Part shown: positions 2,103 to 56,691 of the stretch, one piece after another
How the letters are laid out: each line of letters starts with the position of its first letter
How positions within the stretch are numbered: the stretch's first letter is position 1
DNA from: Acidimicrobiaceae bacterium
GTDB lineage: Bacteria; Actinomycetota; Acidimicrobiia; Acidimicrobiales; RAAP-2
NCBI GenBank assembly: GCA_003133685.1
Contig: PKYQ01000023.1
Span: forward strand, 20,075 to 84,074
Direction: 5' to 3'
DNA: 64,000 nucleotides
The notes under the pieces: generated by a model
The model's input: the letters and a program-made list of their open reading frames with translations, nothing else
Told to the model about the DNA's origin: nothing
Databases searched by the model: none
Translations under genes and position numbers: made by a program

Positions 2103-4442
2103 CTACGCGGCCGCCGAGTAGGCATCCTTCTCGAGGCCGAGCGCGGGGATGAGAACGTCGGCAATCGTGCCGGCGAGGTGGAAGGTCATGACGTTACGAA
2201 CCTCTTCGGGTACGTCTTCGAGGTCTGGTCCGTTTCGTGCCGGCAAGATGATCTCGGTTAACCCGGCGCGGTGGGCAGCTAAGACCTTTTGCTTGACTCC
2301 ACCTATGGGGAGCACCCGGCCCTGCAAAGTGACCTCGCCGGTCATGGCGACGATCGAGCGGACCGGTTCGCCTCGCAGCAGACTGACGAGGGCCGTGGTC
2401 ATGGTGACGCCAGCCGACGGGCCATCCTTGGGAACGGCACCGGCCGGCACGTGGAAGTGGAATCGTTTTCCGGTGAAGGCTTTCGGGTCGATGTTCAACT
2501 CGGTGGTGTGACTGCGGACGTATGACATGGCGATCTCCGCCGACTCCTTCATGACGTCACCCAATTGTCCCGTGAGCGTCAAACCTTCCGGACCCTCGGA
2601 CACGCTGGCTTCGACGAAGAGGACGTCGCCCCCAGCGCCGGTCACGGCGAGTCCGGTCGCCACACCGGGCACGCTGGTGCGATCTGCTGATTCGAAGTAA
2701 AAGTGAGGACGTCCGAGCCAATCGCGCACGGCGGACGCGTTGACAGCGATCGGGGCTTCGCGCTCGCCGGCGGCGAGTTTCGTCGCCGCCTTACGAAGCA
2801 GTCGTCCGATTTCTCGCTCCAGGTTTCGCACGCCGGCTTCACGGGTGTAGTCGGCCACGATGACTCGCAACGCGTCGTCGTCGATCGTGACTTCATCGTC
2901 ACGCAACGCCGCGCGCGCGAGTTGGCGATCGAGAAGGTGGTGACGAGCGATCGAGATCTTCTCGGTCTCGGTGTAGCCGTCAAGCCGGATGACTTCCATC
3001 CGGTCGAGGAGTGGTCCGGGAATGGTGTCGATCACGTTGGCCGTCGCCACGAACATCACGCGCGAAAGATCGAGGTCGACCTCGAGGTAGTGGTCACGAA
3101 AGGTGTGGTTCTGCGCCGGGTCGAGGACCTCCAACAACGCGGACGAGGGGTCGCCGCGAAAGTCCGAACCCAATTTGTCGACCTCGTCGAGGACGATGAC
3201 GGGATTCATGGTGCCGGCTTCTCGCAAGGCACGAACAAGGCGTCCGGGTTGGGCACCGACGTAGGTGCGACGATGCCCTCGTATCTCCGCCTCGTCGCGA
3301 ACGCCACCGAGTGCGACCCGGACGTACTTGCGTTGCAGCGCGTTCGCAATTGACTCACCGAGGGATGTCTTGCCGACGCCCGGGGGGCCCACGAGGGCGA
3401 GAATCGCTCCCGATCCTCGGCCGTCGACGAGTGTTAAGCCACGCTCCGCTTGCAATTTCCTCACCGCGAGGTGCTCGAGGATTCGATCCTTCACGTCTTC
3501 GAGCCCGTCATGGTCGGCGTTCAAGATTCGTTGCGCCTCGGGCACGTCCAAGCGGTCCTCGGACTCGACGCCCCACGGGATCTCCAGGATCGTGTCGAGC
3601 CACGTGCGGATCCAACCGGTCTCGGGACTCTGGTCGCTGGTTCGTTCGAGTTTGTCAATCTCTCGAAGGATGGCGCTGCGCACATGCTCCGGTAGGTCGC
3701 GACCCTCGATCTTGGCGCGGTAGTCATCGGGGTCGACGTCGTCCTCGCCGAGTTGTCCCAGTTCTTTCTTGATGGCGTCGAGCTGTCGACGCAACAAGAA
3801 CTCTCGTTGCGTCTTTTCCATGCCCTCTTCCACGTCGCTCTTGATGCGGTCGCGCAGCGTCAAGTCGGCCAGCGTGTCGCGGGCCCAACCGATCACCAGG
3901 CGGAGTCGCGCTTCGACGTCGATCGTCTCGAGGACCTCCACTTTCTGCGCGAGCGTGAGGTCGGGTGAGTAGCCCGCGACGTCGGCGAGATGTCCGGGTT
4001 CGGTTATCTCGCGCAGCTGTGCGGCAATCTGACGCGCGCCGCGACTGAGCAGGATGTTCTCCAACACGGCGCGGTACTCACGGGCGAGTTCGACGACGTT
4101 TGGCGTGGCTTCGGCGTCACTGAGCGGTTCGGCTTCGACCCACAGCGCGTCGCCGGTTCCGGGAACTCCGGTGCCAATGGTGGCGCGTTGGTCGCCACGA
4201 ATGACGATGGCCTCGAGGCCACCGGGCAACGGACCTTCTTCCATCACTTCGGCGATGACCCCGACGTTCGCGTAGCGACCCTCGATGTGAGGGACCAAGA
4301 GAAGCCGGCCACCCGCAGAACGGGCGGCTTCGACTGCGACGCGCGCCTCGTTCGATTCGAGGGCCATCGTAAATACCATGCCCGGCAAAATGACGCCGGA
4401 CTTCAAGGGGAGAAGCGGCAGGGTGACGTTCTCGTTAGTCAT
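2103..4442 (-). CDS. lon: Lon ATP-dependent protease
   Basis: Walker A GPPGVGKT, Walker B IVLDEVDK, catalytic PKDGPSAG and GGVKQK. Start moved to ATG 4442, which has a GGAAAGG RBS. Confidence 0.97.
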   Translation of the reverse strand: MTNENVTLPLLPLKSGVILPGMVFTMALESNEARVAVEAARSAGGRLLLVPHIEGRYANVGVIAEVMEEGPLPGGLEAIVIRGDQRATIGTGVPGTGDALWVEAEPLSDAEATPNVVELAREYRAVLENILLSRGARQIAAQLREITEPGHLADVAGYSPDLTLAQKVEVLETIDVEARLRLVIGWARDTLADLTLRDRIKSDVEEGMEKTQREFLLRRQLDAIKKELGQLGEDDVDPDDYRAKIEGRDLPEHVRSAILREIDKLERTSDQSPETGWIRTWLDTILEIPWGVESEDRLDVPEAQRILNADHDGLEDVKDRILEHLAVRKLQAERGLTLVDGRGSGAILALVGPPGVGKTSLGESIANALQRKYVRVALGGVRDEAEIRGHRRTYVGAQPGRLVRALREAGTMNPVIVLDEVDKLGSDFRGDPSSALLEVLDPAQNHTFRDHYLEVDLDLSRVMFVATANVIDTIPGPLLDRMEVIRLDGYTETEKISIARHHLLDRQLARAALRDDEVTIDDDALRVIVADYTREAGVRNLEREIGRLLRKAATKLAAGEREAPIAVNASAVRDWLGRPHFYFESADRTSVPGVATGLAVTGAGGDVLFVEASVSEGPEGLTLTGQLGDVMKESAEIAMSYVRSHTTELNIDPKAFTGKRFHFHVPAGAVPKDGPSAGVTMTTALVSLLRGEPVRSIVAMTGEVTLQGRVLPIGGVKQKVLAAHRAGLTEIILPARNGPDLEDVPEEVRNVMTFHLAGTIADVLIPALGLEKDAYSAAA

Positions 4443-13815: not shown

Positions 13816-14413
13816 CGACTACCCCGACTTCGCGCTTGTGAGCAATGAGACCTGCCGCCACCATGAGCAGTCCCCACATCACGTCGACAATTGCAGTTGC
13901 GCCGCTGAAGTACCCGCCGGCAGACTTGAAAAAGCCGAAGTAGTTGGCGAGACGATACAACTGATTGTCAAACGTGAAGATACTCACGAGAAAGCCGATT
14001 ACGCCGAAGAACGTCGCACATATCGCAAGATAGGTATTGCGTTGACGTACCGCGATGAGCAGTAGCGCGAAGCCAATCGTCGGCAGTGCGATGATCCATA
14101 GAGGAATCACAATCACGAACGAAATGAGGAGGACAACACCCGTCGTCATATAAGAACCGCGTCCAGCACCTACGCCGGTCCTTATTCGGTGATTTTTGTA
14201 CCATGCTGTACACAGAAGGAATCCCGCCGGGCCAGCGATTAACCAGTAGACGAGTCTCCACACCGAGAGGTCGCTCAGCTCAAAGGCGGCGCTCAAGATT
14301 GCTAGTGCGCCGAAGATGAAGAGCGGCACCGATGAAGGTCGGCGATCAGCCCAGGCCAATCTTCTCAATCGACCAACCTCATCCAACACTTCTCCCGAAT
14401 CAGAAATCCCCAT
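13808..14413 (-). CDS. Hypothetical multi-pass membrane protein coupled to the wHTH gene
   Basis: Five to six TM segments; overlaps the start of the downstream regulator. Confidence 0.75.
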   Translation of the reverse strand: MGISDSGEVLDEVGRLRRLAWADRRPSSVPLFIFGALAILSAAFELSDLSVWRLVYWLIAGPAGFLLCTAWYKNHRIRTGVGAGRGSYMTTGVVLLISFVIVIPLWIIALPTIGFALLLIAVRQRNTYLAICATFFGVIGFLVSIFTFDNQLYRLANYFGFFKSAGGYFSGATAIVDVMWGLLMVAAGLIAHKREVGVVDA

Positions 14414-14451
14414 GTCGTCCTCCGTGTCGGCAAGCCTCTACATCGCAGAGT

Positions 14452-14468
14452 ACTCTGTACTACAGAGT
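14452..14468. promoter_or_regulatory. Putative autoregulatory operator
   Basis: ACTCTGTA-C-TACAGAGT, perfect inverted repeat about 40 nt upstream of the 14413 start. Confidence 0.6.
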
Positions 14469-14646
14469 TAATCAATTTGTGGTCGATAATTGGTGTTTGA
14501 AAGTCATGCGACTTTGTGCAAACTCGATGGCGTCACTTTGGGAATGCGACTATTGAAGAGGGGTGCGAGTCGGAGTCCGACCCTGCAGGCATGCCACCTC
14601 GTATCGGAGACCAGTCTCTGTGAAGTGTGAGTCGATGAAGGGCACC

Positions 14647-15108
14647 TCAGTTGAGAGTTCGCGCAAAATTCAAACTCTCTTCGATGATCGACAGTACGAT
14701 TTCAAGTTCTTCTTCGTCTCTGGGACCGTAAACCATGATCTCAGTCCCGAAGTCGCCAAACGGATGGACTTCGCCCCAGCCCAACTCGCAAACCTCGTTC
14801 GCGCGTTCCACGGGCAAGCAGAGATGGCTGCTCGTGTCACTCACACCATGAATATGGACCGGCTCGAGTGGTTCCTTGGACGACAGCGAGGTCTCTGGCG
14901 CGCTCACTGACCTCCGACTCGTCAAGAGAAGAGCTCGAGAAGGTGCTGGCGAGACGGAGCTATGTCCTTCGGCAACTCCTTTGAGCTGCGTCGCCCTGGC
15001 AATCAACTCACCCCATAAGGCCGGTGAAGAGCACTGGCTCATTTGTCGGTGAGGGCCTTCGTTGGACGTTTCGGGTTTCTCTCCAGCACGAGGATGATGA
15101 AGCTTCAC
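14647..15108 (-). CDS. Luciferase-like/DUF5519-like protein
   Basis: RP.T...GPHRQ, EP.HIHG..D.S.HLCLP, GWGEVHP, VYGPRDEEELE.V. A close paralog lies at 41663-41980. Confidence 0.7.
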   Translation of the reverse strand: MKLHHPRAGEKPETSNEGPHRQMSQCSSPALWGELIARATQLKGVAEGHSSVSPAPSRALLLTSRRSVSAPETSLSSKEPLEPVHIHGVSDTSSHLCLPVERANEVCELGWGEVHPFGDFGTEIMVYGPRDEEELEIVLSIIEESLNFARTLN

Positions 15109-15149
15109 AGAAGCAAACTACTCAACGCCGCAGAATCAAATTTCACTGA

Positions 15150-15174
15150 TGTCGCGGGCCGACGTGCCCATTCT
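15150..15174 (+). repeat. Junction motif copy a (degenerate)
   Basis: TGTCGCGGGCCGACGTGCCCATTCT. The left flank is homologous to the flank of copy c. Confidence 0.6.
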
Positions 15175-15208
15175 CCGACTTACGATTCGCGCCGGTCTTG
15201 AGCTGAGG

Positions 15209-16180
15209 TCATCGACTCGCGCTCATGCCCCTATCATTCACGGCCACACAATTGCTCCCTGAGGAGCATGAAATTGCCACTCCCGCCACGTACCCTCCGG
15301 GGAACACCGTAAAAGGACTTGACCATCGTCCGGATATCCACGTTGTCACCGCACCGCTTAGTCCAATCACGGAACACTCTGCTGCGGTCGCGCAGGAGAC
15401 CGAGTACGCACCAGCACTCTTGAAAGCGGGGATGAGTTTGGGCAGTGACCAGCTCCCACTATGGAACGTCATTGAGTCTCCAGTGGTGGTCACGGCCATG
15501 CAAAATCGTGAAGCAGTGCACGAGACTGAGATCAGAAATTTCGGCGCAGAACCGTGGCTCGGCGTCCATCTCGTACCGTTGAACGACAGCATCTGACTAT
15601 CGAAGTTCGTGGCCATGCAGAATTGAGGCGTCGAACACGAAACGCTCAACAATCGATCATCGAAGGATCCCGTGGAGGTGGTTTTGTACTTCGTCCAGGA
15701 ATGACCGTTGAAAGTCATCAAGGCGCTTGGCTTTCCTGCAATACCATTGGCGCCGACCGCAGCACAGAAAGTTGGCCTCGGGCACGAAACCTCGTAAATA
15801 TCTCCCGCGGGGCCAATATGAGCGCCGGACGACCAGACGTGACCGTTGTACGTCGCTGCCTTGTCCGCGGCAACCGCAACGCAGAATGTCTTGCTCGAAC
15901 ATGACACGGAATCTATTGACCCTCCCAATGCAAGTGACTGGGGCGCCGTCCACACTCCGCTTCGGTAATACAACGCCTGTCCATCTCCATTCACCGATAC
16001 GCAGAATGTTGATGAAGGGCATGAGACCGAGTAATCCACCTGAGTCGCGGAAGAACCCTTCGAACCAATTAGAACCGGTGGAGACCACTTTTCCAATGAA
16101 GTTGAGGCTGACGCTCCGTTTGTGAACATCGACAGCATTGTCGAAATCATGATGACACTTGCGATTCCAAACCGAGCCAC
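15209..16180 (-). CDS. Secreted Cys-rich repeat protein, predicted 7-blade beta-propeller
   Basis: Signal peptide after GTG 16180 (GGAGA RBS); seven repeats of (S/E/A)(V/I)SC-x4-C. Confidence 0.8.
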   Translation of the reverse strand: MARFGIASVIMISTMLSMFTNGASASTSLEKWSPPVLIGSKGSSATQVDYSVSCPSSTFCVSVNGDGQALYYRSGVWTAPQSLALGGSIDSVSCSSKTFCVAVAADKAATYNGHVWSSGAHIGPAGDIYEVSCPRPTFCAAVGANGIAGKPSALMTFNGHSWTKYKTTSTGSFDDRLLSVSCSTPQFCMATNFDSQMLSFNGTRWTPSHGSAPKFLISVSCTASRFCMAVTTTGDSMTFHSGSWSLPKLIPAFKSAGAYSVSCATAAECSVIGLSGAVTTWISGRWSSPFTVFPGGYVAGVAISCSSGSNCVAVNDRGMSASR

Positions 16181-16262
16181 AGATTCTCCGCGTCGAATGG
16201 AGATCCACCTTCCGCGGAAATGCACCAAGACACTTCCGATCCGGTCCGCGTCGCCATTCACG

Positions 16263-17228
16263 TCAGGGACTCGCGATGTCAAAGTGACGCTTGAGCTCGT
16301 TAGCGTAGGTGCGCCCAAGAGCGGGTGCGTGATCGATCAGCCAGTCTGAGAGCGCCGTCGATCCCGTCGCCGGGCCCTCGGTGTCAGCAAGTCCATCGGC
16401 CATGGCCCGGTACTCGTCACGAGTCAAGAGCACGTCGCCGAGGGCGGCTCCGACGGCTCGAGAGAGGATGGGTAGGACCGCTCCGGGCACGTGGACCAAC
16501 AGCGAGCGGCTCTCGACGGCGTCCTTGATTGAGTTGACCAGCTCCACGAATGTCGGCCGTTCTGGTCCCACCGCGTCGCTTACGCTGTCGAAGCGCTGGG
16601 CCCCCTTTTCGAGGCAGAGTTGCGCGAGATCGTCGACGTGGATCCCTCGGATCCGGTAGTCGCCCCGTCCGCCGATGGCGAAGACGGGAAAATGGCGGAG
16701 CAGCCAGGCGATGTTGTTGAGCAGCACTCCGTCGCTGCCAAAGAGGATGGCGGGGCGCAACACCGCGTACGAGACACCGGTCTCGGCGAGGGCCCGCTCG
16801 ACGAGGGCCTTACCCCGAAAGTACGGCAGCGCGGAGTCCACACTCGGGTGCGTAATGCTGACGTGGACAATGCGCTCAACCCCGGCGCGCCGGGCCGCCT
16901 GGAAGAGCGCTCGAGAGTTCTCCACGGCCAGTTCGTGGTCGATCCGCTGGCGAGCGAAGCGCACCCAGTAGGTGTTGTAGAGCGTGGTGACGCCTTCGAG
17001 TGACGCGACCAAGCCAATCTGGTCATCGAAGTCGAGTGGACGAACTTCGATGCGAGACGCGCTCGTCGCCCGATTGGGGTGCCCGGTCAGCGTGCGGACG
17101 TGACGACCCGCGTCGGTGAGCGCCGTGGCGATGGCTCGACCCGAATAACTGAAGGCTCCGGTCACCGCATCCAGGCCGGTATCGGTCACGCGAGCTGATT
17201 GAAGTCCAGTTGCGGAATCTTTGGTCAT
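16263..17228 (-). CDS. NAD(P)-binding epimerase/dehydratase-like protein
   Basis: AVTGAFSYSG, VHVSIT, YFRGKA..E, LRPAILFG. Confidence 0.88.
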   Translation of the reverse strand: MTKDSATGLQSARVTDTGLDAVTGAFSYSGRAIATALTDAGRHVRTLTGHPNRATSASRIEVRPLDFDDQIGLVASLEGVTTLYNTYWVRFARQRIDHELAVENSRALFQAARRAGVERIVHVSITHPSVDSALPYFRGKALVERALAETGVSYAVLRPAILFGSDGVLLNNIAWLLRHFPVFAIGGRGDYRIRGIHVDDLAQLCLEKGAQRFDSVSDAVGPERPTFVELVNSIKDAVESRSLLVHVPGAVLPILSRAVGAALGDVLLTRDEYRAMADGLADTEGPATGSTALSDWLIDHAPALGRTYANELKRHFDIASP

Positions 17229-39014: not shown

Positions 39015-39089
39015 ATTCCGACGTTCCTCGTATAGACGTCGCGACGCGACAAGACGACGCGATATCTGAAATCATCGCAGTGATTGTGG

Positions 39090-39115
39090 TGTCGGAGGCC
39101 CGACGTAACAGTTCT
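39090..39115 (+). repeat. Junction motif copy b
   Basis: TGTCGGAGGCCCGACGTAACAGTTCT(GCAG). Confidence 0.9.
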
Positions 39116-39472
39116 GCAGTCTTTCACTGGCGTATAGGTTCGTGCACACCTGATCATTGAAATCGGCCACAACGTAGTGCGGAAAGGTCATCTTGGCGCG
39201 AGACCACTGGTCCAAGAACGTCAACTAGGTTCAGAAACGTGAATCGCGGCTCGCGAACTTATTCAGGTCCGCTCTCTCGTAAAGAGCGAATCTTGGATCG
39301 ACTTCGATACCGATTCTTTCCGCCCAAACACCCGTTCCTGAATCCATTTCAACAGATCATCTGGCGCGGGCAACGTCTCGTAAGTGGCGACAACCGACAT
39401 CGGAGAGCCAAGGTTCGCTAGGACGGGCGAGGGTCATATAACTTTTGACCATCACACACGGAGAATCGACGT

Positions 39473-40627: not shown

Positions 40628-40833
40628 TTGGTCGGCCATGATTTAAGGCTCCATGACATGCGCCATACAGGTCTGACGCTGGCTGCAGCAACAGGAGCGA
40701 CGACAGCTGAATTGATGCACCGGGCGGGCCACGCTTCTGCCCCGCTTCCCTGCGGTATCAGCGTGCATCGAGAAATCGTGACCGGCGTCTTTCAGACGCC
40801 TTGGAGGACATGATCATCTTGCCTGAGGTTTAG
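40628..40833 (+). pseudogene. Tyrosine integrase 3' remnant, frameshifted
   Basis: DLRLHDMRHTGLTLAAATGATTAELMHRAGHAS, then in the shifted frame LRYQRASRNRDRRLSDALE. Paralog of 55536-56624. Confidence 0.9.
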
Positions 40834-40985
40834 AAAGTCTCAATCAGTAGAAATCGACCTTCAGGAGTGATCCGTTGGTCGTTGTGGTGCGCGTTTCGTG
40901 AACAATATTGACGTTCTTGTGTCCGCGCGGCTTATCTCGTCACTTTGAAGGAGGATGGAGAGCACGACGCACTGAGGAGAACACA

Positions 40986-41660
40986 ATGATGCCCATGCAA
41001 AGACGGCACTCATGGCCACGTCTCTCTCGCACTCTTCTTCCGGCTGTGACAATGGCGGTGCTCCTCGGCCTAGGTAGTCCCGTCGGCGCTTCCTCCGCCT
41101 CTTCTTCCTCGGTGGCCCTTCGCATCGCGGACTATGCGGTGGCAACTGCGACACACGACAACCCCGCCCACGTTGTCACGGCGGCCGATCTCAGCAATGC
41201 CGCCGGCATCACCGCTGTGAATAACACCAACCTTTTCCTCCTGATCAACGTGGGTGACGTGTTCGGGTTTTCGCGACTCGTTCTGTTCTTTCAAGAGAAA
41301 CCATTCGTCGACATCTGTCTCAACCTCCCTGACACTGTCGGCGGCACACCAAAGATCATTCCGTGCCCGCGCCAGGCTCGGGGGCTTTGGGATACTCACG
41401 GCGGCGCTCTTGCTGTCAGCAATCGGGCCATCGCTGCAGCCGCGGCGACCGGACACGCCGTGTCAGGTGCCGACGTTGTTGCAGCTGCGAAGGTTTATCA
41501 CTTGACACTTCGCCGCAAGCCAATTTTCCTCGCGGGACAAGGTGGCAAGGTGGAGTTCACGACGCCGGTTGAAATGGGACTAAACACGAAGTTCACGGTG
41601 GACACCTGCGTCCAACTGCCAAAGACCGCCTACGGCATACCCATCTGGGTGCCTTGCTGA
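40986..41660 (+). CDS. Secreted protein with two internal repeats, each ending in a Cys pair
   Basis: Signal peptide; VDICLNLP...PKIIPC and VDTCVQLP...PIWVPC. Confidence 0.75.
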   Translation: MMPMQRRHSWPRLSRTLLPAVTMAVLLGLGSPVGASSASSSSVALRIADYAVATATHDNPAHVVTAADLSNAAGITAVNNTNLFLLINVGDVFGFSRLVLFFQEKPFVDICLNLPDTVGGTPKIIPCPRQARGLWDTHGGALAVSNRAIAAAAATGHAVSGADVVAAAKVYHLTLRRKPIFLAGQGGKVEFTTPVEMGLNTKFTVDTCVQLPKTAYGIPIWVPC

Positions 41661-41662
41661 GA

Positions 41663-41980
41663 TCAGGAGCCTGAAACCTTCACAGACAAGCAGAGGTGGG
41701 TGCTCGTGTCGGTCACACCATGAATATGTACCGGCTCGAGTGGCTGTCTTGGCGACAGCGAGGTCTCTGGAGCGCTGATCTCGCTGTGACTGGTCAATAA
41801 AAGGGCTCGCGAAGGTGCTGGTGAAACGGAACTGTGTCCTTCAATAACTCCATCGAACTGCACCGCCCTTGCAATCAACGCACCCCAAAGTGCGGGCGAA
41901 GAGTTTTGACTTAGCTGTCGGTGAGGTCCTTCGTCGGAAGTCTCGGGTCTCTTTCCTGCACGAGGTTGAAGAAGTGTCAC
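41663..41980 (-). pseudogene. 3'-truncated DUF5519-like paralog
   Basis: Aligns with the first ~100 aa of 14647-15108, then stops after HLCLSVK at the stop of the convergent gene. Confidence 0.8.
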
Positions 41981-42020
41981 GAACGCAAACTACTTAACGC
42001 CGCAGTATCAAACTTCAAGG

Positions 42021-42046
42021 TGTCGGTGGCCCGACGTAAAAGATCG
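42021..42046 (+). repeat. Junction motif copy c
   Basis: TGTCGGTGGCCCGACGTAAAAGATCG. Confidence 0.85.
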
Positions 42047-42109
42047 ATGTAGAGATCGACAACGGACGCATCGTTGATTTCGGCGTGAATTGCCCGCGAC
42101 ATGCAGGCG

Positions 42110-43330
42110 TCAAACTGAGACGACTTGCCAGTGACCCCCAGCGTCGCTCGTATGAAACAGTGCAGAGTGAGTCCGATTTGACTCACTCTGCACGATTGCG
42201 AAGCCGGTTGAACGACTTGCAAACACAACCTGGGAGACAGAGCGGTTGAGGACGACTTTCCAATTTTTCCCCCAATTCGTGCTGCGAATTAGCTGAAGGC
42301 GCGAATTCGTTGCCCGTTGGAGGAGAATTGTCCCAGGTACGGGCGCGGCCGGTAGTCCAGGCACGGCGTAGTAACCCCTTTGATAGGAACTTGACAGTTC
42401 TCGAAGTGGTTTGAACGTCGCCCCAGCGTCATAGGAAATGAAGAGCCACGAAGCGCTGTTGTTCCAATCGGGCGGCACGGTAGAAGCCGGCGGGATTACA
42501 AAGCCAGCGCTTTGGCCCACAGCGAGTAGAACCTTGCTTGTCACCGCCGTTATCGGACTAAAGCTCGCACCGAAATCCTCGAAAGAGGGACCGCTCCACG
42601 CTCTCCATGAGCCGTCATTCGACAGTCGTAAACTCGCGGTGAATCCGCGATCGTTCCCAGCAACAAGCCACCCACTGGAACCGATGAAACTGAATTGACC
42701 TTCCAATTCGCTACCTCCCGCGGGCACCAACATTGGTGCATTCGAATCCTTTGTCCATTGGTCCGCGTTTGAATGAGTAGCAAGAACGTAGGCATGACCG
42801 TTTTCATAAGATCCACCGAAGAGGTACGTCCATGCCCCATGCGTCGCCATCTGGATCACCCCGGAAGTGATTGAGAGCGGGCCAAGCCGAATTTGACGCC
42901 ACGTCTTGCCACCGTCATGGGTTGACCACAGACGACTGACCCAGTTTGGATTGGTCGTGTTCGGTGTAACAGGCGCGGGGACCGTTCCATAGATCCAGCC
43001 GTTTTGCGCGTTGGCGAAGTGGACGTTGATCGTCGAATACGAACTGCTGAAAGTACCCCACGAAACGAGGTGGAAGTCTTTGTTCATCTGGCCCGGCGTA
43101 TGAACAACATTCCACGACGAAGCCGCGTCAATGGTGCTTCGCAGGGCAGCGCACGTTCTCCCGCCGCAGTCATAGAGCGAGAGCACGTAGCCAAGGTGGG
43201 AAGACGGGAACGATAAGGACATGGGGTCCAGTTGAAGTGAAGTCGCCTCCGCCAACCCTGGAGTGAAACTCAACGAAAACATGACGACAATGCCGACTAA
43301 TAGTCGCCACATTCTCAATCCCAGAATCAT
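42110..43330 (-). CDS. Secreted BNR/Asp-box beta-propeller (406 aa)
   Basis: STHDGGKTW, SYDAGATF, HTSDAGGHW. Close paralog of 53897-55117. Confidence 0.87.
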   Translation of the reverse strand: MILGLRMWRLLVGIVVMFSLSFTPGLAEATSLQLDPMSLSFPSSHLGYVLSLYDCGGRTCAALRSTIDAASSWNVVHTPGQMNKDFHLVSWGTFSSSYSTINVHFANAQNGWIYGTVPAPVTPNTTNPNWVSRLWSTHDGGKTWRQIRLGPLSITSGVIQMATHGAWTYLFGGSYENGHAYVLATHSNADQWTKDSNAPMLVPAGGSELEGQFSFIGSSGWLVAGNDRGFTASLRLSNDGSWRAWSGPSFEDFGASFSPITAVTSKVLLAVGQSAGFVIPPASTVPPDWNNSASWLFISYDAGATFKPLRELSSSYQRGYYAVPGLPAAPVPGTILLQRATNSRLQLIRSTNWGKNWKVVLNRSVSQVVFASRSTGFAIVQSESNRTHSALFHTSDAGGHWQVVSV

Positions 43331-43441
43331 TCAAACTCCCTCGACGTGCTTGGTTTACCACGAAGCGGAATCGAACGACCGTCGCGCCCGATGGTTGAGG
43401 TCTCTTACTTGTCGGATTGAATCAAGGTTGCGAATCTGCGA

Positions 43442-43467
43442 TGTCGGGGGCCCGACGTAACAGTTCT
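43442..43467 (+). repeat. Junction motif copy d
   Basis: TGTCGGGGGCCCGACGTAACAGTTCT. Confidence 0.9.
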
Positions 43468-43732
43468 AATGGGTCTGGACGGCGCCACTTTTTTGAGTGA
43501 TGCTGTCTCCGAGCCACTGGCCGGGAGCATTGTCTGCAACCCGAGCGTTCAGCTCTAGTGCAAGAGCGTGCCCCAGTCGGTCGGTGAGGTTGACGGGTAT
43601 GGCTGAAGGGGTGTCGCGCCATGAGCACTGATCCATTAGGTCGCCACCGTCTCCTCGGGGCTAGTCCGCTTAGGACTTCAGGCTGGCGGCTGCAACTGTG
43701 CTTGCTGCACGCTGAATGATACGTTCAGTCCC

Positions 43733-44791: not shown

Positions 44792-44874
44792 TGCAGTTCA
44801 GAGTTCGCCGGGACTCGCAAACTTGTCAGAGAATATCGTGCGACTGAAAGACGAGTCGATCGAGTCTCAATGGG

Positions 44875-44900
44875 TGTCGGTGGCCCGACGACCCAGTTCT
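44875..44900 (+). repeat. Junction motif copy e
   Basis: TGTCGGTGGCCCGACGACCCAGTTCT(GCAG). Confidence 0.88.
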
Positions 44901-45048
44901 GCAGCCCCGCATTGGCGACTCACGCACACGAAATAGTCACCGAATATGACGCCAGCGATTCATCTTCCAATTACTCACCTTCAAGGCGGAGGTCATCTAC
45001 GTGACCATGATCTCCGACGATAACTCGACGGTCAAGGTTCGAATGATG

Positions 45049-46739: not shown

Positions 46740-47081
46740 GTGATGAAGTCGCTCATCCAACATCTAGAGAAATTCACTTCGCCCGATTCAGAAGCCCGTG
46801 TTGTCATCGGCAGGGAAAGTTCAACCCTAACCAGGGACGCACTTCAAGGTTCGTGGGAGAGAGCGCGTTTGGCCATTGGGCGACCGGACCTAAGGCTCCA
46901 CGACATGCGTCACACCGGGTTGACTTTGGCGGCAGCGACGGGAGCTACGACGTCAGAACTGATGCACCGCGCCGGACACGCCTCCGCACCCGCTGCACTT
47001 CGGTATCAGCATGCAACTAGAGATCGTGACCGGCGACTATCAGAAGCGCTGGAGGCCACGATTCCCGACCCGGAGATTTAG
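46740..47081 (+). pseudogene. Tyrosine integrase 3' remnant (about 113 codons)
   Basis: RDALQGSWERARLAIG.PDLRLHDMRH...GH...RYQHA, near-identical to the C-terminus of the intact integrase. Lacks the N-terminal domains and catalytic R/K. Confidence 0.92.
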
Positions 47082-50264: not shown

Positions 50265-50290
50265 GGTCGTGGGCCCGACATAACGGGTCT
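50265..50290 (+). repeat. Junction motif copy f, between convergent stops
   Basis: GGTCGTGGGCCCGACATAACGGGTCT(GCTA). Confidence 0.8.
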
Positions 50291-50328
50291 GCTACTAGCC
50301 ACTGGAGACTTCGGAGTTCGGCACCGGT

Positions 50329-51021: not shown

Positions 51022-51250
51022 GATTCAATCCTCGATGAACGGCGCCAAGGCAAACTGAGGCTCGTTTCTGCTGAGCGTAGTGCAATGTGGGCCTCTGTGC
51101 TTCTCCTGCTGCGCGGAAAGAGTCACCGGCAGTCAGCCGGGTTACTGATCAGAAAAGTCACCACCCCATCGCATCGCCAGTCTCTCCGGGACGAGACAAC
51201 GGTTCTGTTGCCGGACAATGGCGGTTCGCCATGTAGTCGACCCTCACCGG

Positions 51251-51276
51251 TGTCGGGGGCCCGACACAATAGTTCA
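51251..51276 (+). repeat. Junction motif copy g
   Basis: TGTCGGGGGCCCGACACAATAGTTCA(GCAA). Confidence 0.88.
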
Positions 51277-51325
51277 GCAATCCTTGACGGGCGGCTCTCC
51301 CCCGCGCGTTGGACTGGCGAAGCGA

Positions 51326-55535: not shown

Positions 55536-56624
55536 ATGACTCGACGTCACTTTGGATCTGTCAGAAAGAGACCTTCGGGTCGCTGGCAGACCCTTTTCTG
55601 GCAAGACGAACGCGTTCAGTCGGCGGGCACGTTCGCGACAAAAGCTGACGCGCAGGCATTTCTATCCGCACTGGAAACGGATCTTCGAAGAGGTAAATGG
55701 ATTGATCCTCGAGGAGGTGAAGTAACGCTATGCGACTACGCCAATGCTTGGTTGATACAGAGAACTGAATTGGCGGAACGAACTGTGGAGTTGTACCGCC
55801 ACGTCCTTAGCAATCACATACTTATTGCGCTGGGCACTTCAACCGTGACCGGTCTCAGTCCAACCAAAATTCGCTCTTGGCACGCAAACATCGCGAAAGA
55901 TCATCCCGCGACTGCGTCGAAGGCATACCGTCTGTTGTCGTCAATTATGCGAACCGCTATCATCGACGGAATTATTCTGAGTTCGCCTTGCAAGGTTGAG
56001 GGCGCCGGCACAGAACACGCCGCCGAAAGGCCGATCGCTTCCGCCGAGGAAGTTGAACTTCTGTCACGGGCGATGCCAGATCATCTCCGAATCGTTGTAC
56101 CACTTGCCACATGGTGCCAGTTGCGCCGAGGTGAGATTCTCGGACTGCGAAGAATGGATGTTGACCTGAAGCAACACGTGATTCACATTCTTCAAAGCCG
56201 CACGTTTGGAATGGATGGCAAGCAGATAATGAAACTGCCAAAAACGGATGCAGGTCGGCGAACAATCTTCGTCCCCCGACCAGTGATGAAGTCCCTCGTT
56301 CGACATGTTGAGATATTCGCTGGGCCAGAACCAGAAGCCCTGGTAGTCGTTGGAAGGGGAGGTGCAAATCTCTCAAGGGATGCACTCCAAGGGTCGTGGG
56401 AAAGGGCGAGGCTGGCAATCGGTGGACCTGACTTACGACTTCACGACATGCGTCACACGGGTTTGACGTTGGCGGCGGCAACGGGAGCAACTACGGCGGA
56501 ATTGATGCATCGAGCGGGTCACGCCTCTGCGCCCGCGGCCCTCCGGTATCAGCACGCGACCAGAGATCGTGACCAGCGCCTATCAGACGCCCTTGAGGGC
56601 ATGATCCACGTCCCAGAGGATTAG
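55536..56624 (+). CDS. int: Tyrosine integrase with N-terminal arm-binding domain
   Basis: RRHFGSVRKRPSGRWQ N-terminus; catalytic set intact: LRRGE (R), PKT (K), HDMR, GH, YQH. Confidence 0.96.
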   Translation: MTRRHFGSVRKRPSGRWQTLFWQDERVQSAGTFATKADAQAFLSALETDLRRGKWIDPRGGEVTLCDYANAWLIQRTELAERTVELYRHVLSNHILIALGTSTVTGLSPTKIRSWHANIAKDHPATASKAYRLLSSIMRTAIIDGIILSSPCKVEGAGTEHAAERPIASAEEVELLSRAMPDHLRIVVPLATWCQLRRGEILGLRRMDVDLKQHVIHILQSRTFGMDGKQIMKLPKTDAGRRTIFVPRPVMKSLVRHVEIFAGPEPEALVVVGRGGANLSRDALQGSWERARLAIGGPDLRLHDMRHTGLTLAAATGATTAELMHRAGHASAPAALRYQHATRDRDQRLSDALEGMIHVPED

Positions 56625-56691
56625 AACTCGAACCAGGCTTCTCCTTAATGGCCCTCTCAGGCGTCGAGACTGCTCGCGTCTCTTGATTGGA

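Follow-up and report, generated by a model that had tools for sequence, protein, structure and literature searches.

The window analysed here is a stretch of 64,000 nucleotides of an Acidimicrobiaceae genome (contig PKYQ01000023.1), and it carries two copies of a small gene of the DUF5519 family, one intact (copy A) and one 3'-truncated (copy B), about 27 kb apart. Both lie beside a short motif, CGACGT, whose T at the right-hand end is taken as position 0 throughout. Locus A lies outside the tRNA-Glu island of the window and is made up as follows.

14569 to 14610, + strand: decayed site GTCGGAGTCCGACCCTGCAGGCATGCCACCTCGTATCGGAGA, downstream of gene A (weak nhmmer match at 14577-14610)
14647 to 15108, - strand: DUF5519/Luciferase-domain gene, copy A, intact, 153 aa, with a GTG start at 15108, a PF17648 domain and dN/dS of 0.12-0.24
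15114 to 15122, - strand: conserved block AGTAGTTTG, which stops 5 nt short of the GTG start and is nearly invariant in all close homologs
15145 to 15196, + strand: site A, somewhat degenerate and class-2-like, with core TGTCGCGGGCCGACGT at 15150-15165 (nhmmer E = 0.002 genome-wide)
15197 to 16266, - strand: neighbouring cassette with a gene of 369 aa, truncated at 16266, where it abuts the stop codon of a core NmrA-like gene

The product of copy A matches the Pfam 'Luciferase domain' (PF17648) over residues 82-145, with 65.7 bits (E = 4.4e-18) against a curated gathering threshold of 23.7 bits. Its GTG start (15108 in A, 41980 in B) and its reading frame are conserved in 12 metagenome homologs. 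Since the ATG of copy A at 15043 is ATA in nearly all homologs and the upstream GTG is conserved, the GTG is the true start and the protein has 153 aa. The non-coding leader between this start and the T of the motif is consequently 57 nt long, and corrects the figure of about 40 nt given in an earlier sequence-only reading of the same DNA. Within the leader, the AGTAGTTTG block recurs as the same 9-mer in copy B (41986-41994); its TAGTTT may be the -10 element of a cassette-borne promoter that would produce a leaderless mRNA, and a sigma-70 consensus scan of 14400-15400 gave no promoter match.

In the protein alignment, residues E82, H85, H87, D91, S93 and H95 (EPVHIHG.xDTSxHLxLP) are invariant in homologs down to 40% identity, which suggests a candidate metal site in a protein of YjbR-like fold. 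The 153-aa protein models as such a fold in AlphaFold (pLDDT 80, pTM 0.77): its best fold match in the PDB is a modest one to E. coli YjbR (2fki; E = 1.5e-3, TM 0.50/0.62), followed by a weaker one to the C-terminal domain of T4 MotA. The N-terminal 22 residues, which are present in close alleles only, are modelled as disordered. NCBIfam, a sequence search of the PDB and a literature search on DUF5519 gave no match.

The second copy lies within the island, among further sites of the same kind.

39084 to 39143, 43437 to 43489, 44871 to 44920, 50267 to 50311 and 51248 to 51297, + strand: further island sites (nhmmer)
41661 to 41680, no strand: junction at which copy B is truncated, immediately past the stop of a + strand gene (40908-41660)
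41663 to 41980, - strand: DUF5519 copy B, a 3'-truncated remnant of about 100 codons with no internal stop and with most of the Pfam domain gone
42016 to 42047, + strand: site B, with core TGTCGGTGGCCCGACGT at 42021-42037 (nhmmer E = 5e-6)

The sequence-only reading had set the limits of homology at 14647-15165 and 41663-42037 and had proposed a pairwise alignment as the check. When the two loci were aligned (MAFFT and blastn), copy A at 14809-15165 matched copy B at 41681-42037 over 359 columns with 79.4% identity (E ~1e-82). The right-hand limits therefore stand, at the T of CGACGT on the + strand (15165 in A, 42037 in B) with nothing matching beyond it, whereas the left-hand limits move in to 14809 and 41681. 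Past the motif the two loci do continue into different genes, as had been noticed: the proteins of 369 aa (15209-16318) and 406 aa (42110-43330) are unrelated (BLASTP E = 9.8). Homology between these neighbouring 'propeller' genes, which would speak against a breakpoint, was considered and rejected on the same value. With unrelated genes beyond it, the stretch of roughly 60 nt around the motif contains a genuine rearrangement breakpoint, and the end of the A-B match is more than the decay of unconstrained DNA. As A and B are the sole pair in their own genome with long flank homology, the genus and metagenomes were brought into the comparison.

The motif turned out to be the core of a family of sites of about 55 nt, of which an HMM built from the clear copies finds about 50 in this genome, in same-orientation arrays on contigs C16, C19, C27 and C11 and in the window. 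The site core GTCGGNGGSCCGAC is present in 27 of the 41 genomes of the genus, where a reversed control pattern gives 0-1 match per genome. An iterated search over 93 fetched regions raised the collection to 210 sites, with the consensus GGTGTCGGAGGCCCGACGYRACAGGTCTGCAACCTTGCACTGGCGGCT; the pair and position statistics below are based on 209 of them. Right halves are of class 1 (…GACAGGTCTGCAACC…CACTGGCG), of the shorter class 2 (…CAACAATC(TCC)GACTGGCG) or of class 3 (…GTGAACCCGCACGC). When the tRNA-Leu(GAG) of this genome is reverse-complemented and compared with class-3 sites between its T-stem and its CCA end, 24-25 of 30 positions agree; for the class-1 consensus the agreement is only 12 of 13 nt, which is barely above other tRNAs. 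With the class-3 sites, the likeness makes a convincing case that the common core TGGTGTCGGAGGCCCGACGTGA would descend from the 3' half of tRNA-Leu(GAG). Within the window, Rfam reports tRNAs only. The functional tRNA-Leu(GAG) gene of this genome lies on contig C14 (complement 4061-4147), and no cassette site was detected on C14; the arrays of this assembly are therefore not anchored at the source tRNA. About 1.8 kb downstream of that tRNA gene there is a weak tyrosine-recombinase match (C14:1817-2266, 24.5 bits).

At many loci, and for a large share of the sites, the nearest contig end is only 1-3 kb away. Short-read assembly seems to break at the arrays, and array sizes and recombinase counts in these MAGs are probably underestimated.

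The core forms a small hairpin, and the motif could in principle be a regulatory or terminator hairpin of unrelated operons, the two DUF5519 genes being ordinary paralogs whose flanks have decayed. Neutral flanks would be unalignable anyway at the synonymous divergence of the two copies (dS 0.65), and the homology of copy A to other alleles also stops at its stop codon. However, there is no T-run, no terminator was called in 14400-15400, and the orientation of the sites is independent of that of the neighbouring genes. Moreover, the flanking proteins are unrelated, the neighbours of the gene vary greatly between contigs, and in other cassettes homologies at 82-95% identity break at the site on one side. 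These one-sided pairs largely refute the hairpin reading, which we consider very improbable.

At locus A, two such units can be recognised next to each other. The decayed site at 14569-14610, which resembles the GTCGGAGGCCCGGCTTGACAGAAATACCACCTCGCACTGGCG type of site on C19, closes the copy A unit at about 580 bp. On the other side of site A, the cassette of the 369-aa gene has homologs of 82-89% identity in two genomes of the genus (G019 and G028), which start at window positions 15151, 15195 and 15205; the full-length ones (G019:C10 and G028) end at 16266, and core NmrA-like and TetR genes, common with G011 and G023, resume from 16269. Since the DUF5519 unit is closed by a decayed site and the 369-aa cassette stands beside it, locus A is a small decayed array. 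The listed TTG start of the 369-aa gene, at 16318, falls inside the core NmrA-like gene (16263-17228), which may mean that the cassette gene is left without a start and promoter of its own.

The DUF5519 gene is patchily distributed. Of 37 genomes of the genus, only 4 have a homolog, and among metagenome contigs a scan gave 37 loci that encode homologs, 13 of them at 76-87% amino-acid identity; to judge from the sample names, the majority are from peat or bog. At least seven of these contigs (L008, L009, L014/15, L017, L018 and L020) have the gene flanked by two sites, both oriented as in the window: the first stands shortly before the promoter region, the second about 50 nt past the stop. The neighbours of the gene differ widely from contig to contig. 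The homologs in G028 and G009 were considered for mapping the breakpoint and set aside as too diverged and not beside a site.

The two copies of the window are not each other's closest relatives. They share 78.7% identity over the common 300 nt, whereas copy B is 90.3% identical to the alleles of L014 and L015 and groups with them at 100/99 support, and the synonymous divergence between A and B is high (dS = 0.65). An intragenomic duplicate would be expected to show mutual closest relatives and low synonymous divergence, and the pair shows neither; A and B thus go back to two separate acquisitions, and the term 'duplicated', which the sequence-only reading had used for the unit, does not apply. 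They appear to be diverged alleles that came independently out of a large pool in the environment. Values of dN/dS are 0.12-0.32 in all allele pairs (0.27 for B against L014), and the gene family is under purifying selection.

That the island copy is 3'-truncated is borne out: its 3' third is gone, and a Pfam search of copy B finds no match, the domain having been deleted. The homology of B to every other allele stops at 41678-41687, and the adjoining block contains a 3' remnant of a tyrosine integrase (40639-40835); the truncation is therefore secondary and unrelated to the site. Copy B was cut by an unrelated deletion or insertion after its acquisition. Its nearest relatives, L014 and L015, are intact, and the cut is recent relative to the divergence of B.

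Where DNA is exchanged within the site is a question that the A-B pair by itself cannot answer, because 26% of random pairs among the 209 sites are identical over CCGACGT; the GGCC(C)GACGT common to A and B is merely the core of all sites. We therefore collected pairs of sites with a long homologous flank on one side only, comprising 12 left-only pairs (A-B included) and 13 right-only pairs, which are few and partly non-independent. At the polymorphic positions from -19 to -11, left-only pairs match in 62/84 comparisons and right-only pairs in 38/91 (background 0.59; Fisher p < 1e-4), and at -10 they match in 8/12 and 3/13, respectively (background 0.52; Fisher p = 0.047). The relation is reversed at -7, -1 and 0, where left-only pairs match in 20/36 comparisons and right-only pairs in 32/39 (background 0.65; Fisher p = 0.023). 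Single pairs illustrate this: G0C16_138511 and L049_11468 are identical over 35 nt up to -11 and then differ at -10, -7 and -1, and L108 and L109, 98% identical on the right side, differ at -10. One left-only pair seems to extend to about +23. A G at -7 accompanies a class-2 right half in 9 of 10 sites against 7 of 199 others (p = 6e-11), a linkage that could alternatively mean that the two classes do not recombine together. Since positions -19 to -10 go with the left flank and -7, -1 and 0 with the right, the switch lies between -10 and -7, that is, in the spacer AGGC of the dyad GTCGG/CCGAC.

A likelihood scan bounds a single exchange point to -10 to -1. Placing the exchange after -11 costs 4.6-14 log units and placing it after 0 costs 9, and the profile is flat from -10 to -2 because the core from -9 to -2 is almost invariant. 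The model is crude and behaves badly on right-only pairs alone, in which the conserved core exceeds the flank identity; we therefore rely on the polymorphic positions. The central GG (-9/-8) is kept in 98% and 87% of the sites, respectively, and forms the centre of the dyad GTCGG-AGGC-CCGAC. Most probably, the exchange takes place at this GG, at 15156-57 in A and 42028-29 in B. An exchange at a central dinucleotide would fit the serine recombinase class.

These results bear on both parts of what the sequence-only reading had concluded about the motif. That it is a recombination site is supported by the DUF5519 gene lying between same-orientation sites on the peat contigs and by all 25 one-sided pairs, which break inside the site. 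The strand exchange had been placed at or near CGACG|T, with the expectation that breakpoints of further homologs would cluster at the same base; they do fall inside the site, but the switch is at -10 to -7, some 8-9 bp to the left, and G|T is disfavoured. The corresponding explanation is a duplication within the genome to a locus 27 kb away with exchange at CGACG|T, possibly by a tRNA-targeting tyrosine integrase with a T-loop crossover. It is attractive in that the homology ends exactly at the T, that G|T lies in the former T-loop of the tRNA-derived core, reportedly a classic crossover spot of such integrases (Williams 2002, as cited in 10.1101/2020.12.28.424599), and that the island holds a tyrosine integrase together with two of its 3' remnants. 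In the likelihood scan, G|T costs only 3.4 log units over all pairs or 6.2 with one pair per cassette family. However, A and B are not sisters and differ by a dS of 0.65, a quarter of random site pairs (26%) share CCGACGT, positions -7, -1 and 0 go with the right flank rather than the left, and arrays on other contigs end in the tails of large serine recombinases (LSRs), not of tyrosine integrases. We therefore regard this explanation as unlikely.

Several features point to an LSR as the enzyme working the sites. In four cases (G013:C75, G013:C61, G012:C38 and the frameshifted G028:C13), genes of about 490 aa with Resolvase, Recombinase and Zn_ribbon_recom domains end inside the core, which, read as GGT GTC GGA GG[C/G] CCG ACG TGA, encodes …GVGGPT followed by the stop; the TGA at 0 to +2 is kept in 43 of 209 sites. 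The physical association of an LSR with the site is thus seen in the genus through these four genes, and in this genome through a remnant only. On the strength of this sequence association, an LSR would be the recombinase that acts on the family. This genome has six matches to the tyrosine-recombinase domain PF00589. Against an LSR, the genome, which is 95% complete, has no Resolvase-domain gene, and the other site-richest genomes (G007, G036 and G023) contain no clear LSR. Either the enzyme is supplied in trans by unassembled or visiting elements, or these genomes have arrays that are frozen.

The remnant in this genome is a C-terminal LSR fragment of 44 aa that adjoins a site (C19:4034-3906), and LSR tail remnants of about the same length stand directly left of sites in L073, L080 and L099 too.

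Ordinary homologous recombination between repeats of about 55 nt would produce breakpoints anywhere, and their clustering would then reflect the best-conserved part of the site. This would account for many sites in a genome that has no LSR, for the breakpoints outside the core (about +45 at the 369-aa cassette and about +23 in one pair) and for an inferred exchange that falls in the best-conserved 22 nt. Against it, the linkage switches sharply between -10 and -7, all sites of an array have one orientation, the LSR genes end precisely in the core in four cases, and 22 identical nucleotides are very few for an exchange that depends on RecA. We consider homologous recombination improbable, somewhat more so than the in-genome duplication.

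We therefore favour, as the probable explanation, that the DUF5519 gene is the sole cargo of a mobile cassette, which this genome took up on two occasions and which was joined by site-specific exchange, most probably at GG. In the orientation of the gene, the cassette of about 580 bp would begin with a short left arm (…CCGACACC) and the conserved promoter-like block; the 153-aa gene would be followed by a brief 3' UTR and the greater part of another site. Cassettes of this kind would be stacked in arrays of one orientation with a site of about 55 nt between them. The site core would descend from the 3' half of tRNA-Leu(GAG) and, in relatives, would provide the last codons of the LSR gene (…GVGGPT*), with the serine recombinase cutting at the central dinucleotide GG of the dyad. 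A and B would have been drawn separately from the environmental pool, B being truncated afterwards, and their similarity would stop inside the site because cassettes join there by site-specific recombination. More broadly, it is conceivable, although we put this forward only tentatively, that peat Acidimicrobiaceae possess an integron-like system of gene capture driven by an LSR, in which the core, derived from the 3' half of tRNA-Leu, forms the last codons of the enzyme, cassettes of about 0.5-1.5 kb bear their own promoters, each insertion or excision at GG also swaps the C-terminal tail of the recombinase, and the cassette pool is common to the genus and the habitat.

A few observations at the edges of the cassettes fit this proposal less simply. 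(i) The right half of site A (15166-15200; GTGCCCATTCTCCGACTTACG) is class-2-like, and the same 369-aa cassette in G019 and G028 has class-1 right halves, its strong homology to them beginning only at about +45 (~15200). (ii) The homology of copy A to other alleles ends at the stop codon, with no detectable common 3' UTR or site half, whereas L008, L009, L017 and L018 do have the 3' UTR and site half in common. Either neutral decay (dS about 0.6) or a breakpoint of another kind could account for the missing likeness of the copy A 3' UTR. (iii) In L008 (contig Ga0224548_1007481, L008:85-125), the left arm upstream of the DUF5519 gene is doubled in tandem (GGTGTCGGAGGC GGTGTCGGAGGC); the doubled arm ends at -7 and is followed by non-site DNA, which looks like the scar of an aberrant exchange. 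The class mismatch, the copy A 3' end and the L008 doubling may be secondary events, or may indicate that not all exchanges occur at one point.

To our knowledge, cassette capture is well described for integrons only, where it works via a tyrosine recombinase. The DUF5519 cassette would be a trackable unit of a different capture system, as it measures about 580 bp, holds one gene and occurs with many alleles and many neighbours. Taken alone, the finding of two copies corroborates a cassette system to a modest degree. What the wider comparison adds is that a single pairwise observation becomes a testable statement, namely that exchange takes place at the central GG of a tRNA-derived dyad and not at G|T, and that the comparisons point to an enzyme, an LSR whose gene ends inside the site.

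The arrays resemble integrons in several respects. They consist of small, mostly single-gene modules in same-orientation arrays, most of the site lies at one cassette end and a few bases at the other, a given cassette recurs beside many different neighbours, and most of the cargo has no assigned function. However, integron attC sites are defined by R''(RYYYAAC)-L''…L'-R'(GTTRRRY) boxes with exchange at G|TT, and such boxes are absent from the consensus of the 210 sites. The site here is about 55 nt long, derived from tRNA-Leu, and has a 5-bp dyad rather than a long imperfect attC hairpin; the recombinase abutting the arrays is an LSR, whereas that of integrons is the tyrosine recombinase IntI. 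Furthermore, the cassettes here appear to carry their own promoters, their cargo occurs in both orientations, and there is no attI/Pc platform.

The formally closest known arrangement is tandem accretion at tRNA-derived att sites. In one form of it, integrative elements accrete in tandem at tRNA genes together with CIMEs, which have no recombinase (Guedon et al. 2017, PMC5704250); another comprises the tycheposon islands, whose recombinases are mostly of the tyrosine type (10.1101/2020.12.28.424599). As in tandem accretion, modules without a recombinase are here bounded by direct repeats of the same orientation; with CIMEs and tycheposons the arrays have in common att repeats from a tRNA 3' end, head-to-tail modules with partial tRNA copies between them, many modules without a recombinase, and recombinase remnants scattered in the arrays. 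They differ in that the modules here are 0.5-1.5 kb long, usually hold one gene and number dozens per genome, in that the arrays of this genome are not anchored to its functional tRNA-Leu gene, and in that the LSR gene spans the site.

A serine enzyme is found in the SCC/SCCmec elements, whose stacked cargo modules, some of them without a recombinase, are bounded by short direct repeats on which the large serine recombinases CcrAB act. These elements measure tens of kb, have the ccr genes in their interior and target rlmH at its 3' end. In contrast, the site described here is tRNA-like and overlaps the stop codon of the recombinase's own gene.

Within the island of the window, the 3' end of the tyrosine integrase is itself present in three copies, at 40639-40835, 46891-47062 and 56429-56626 (78-79% identity).
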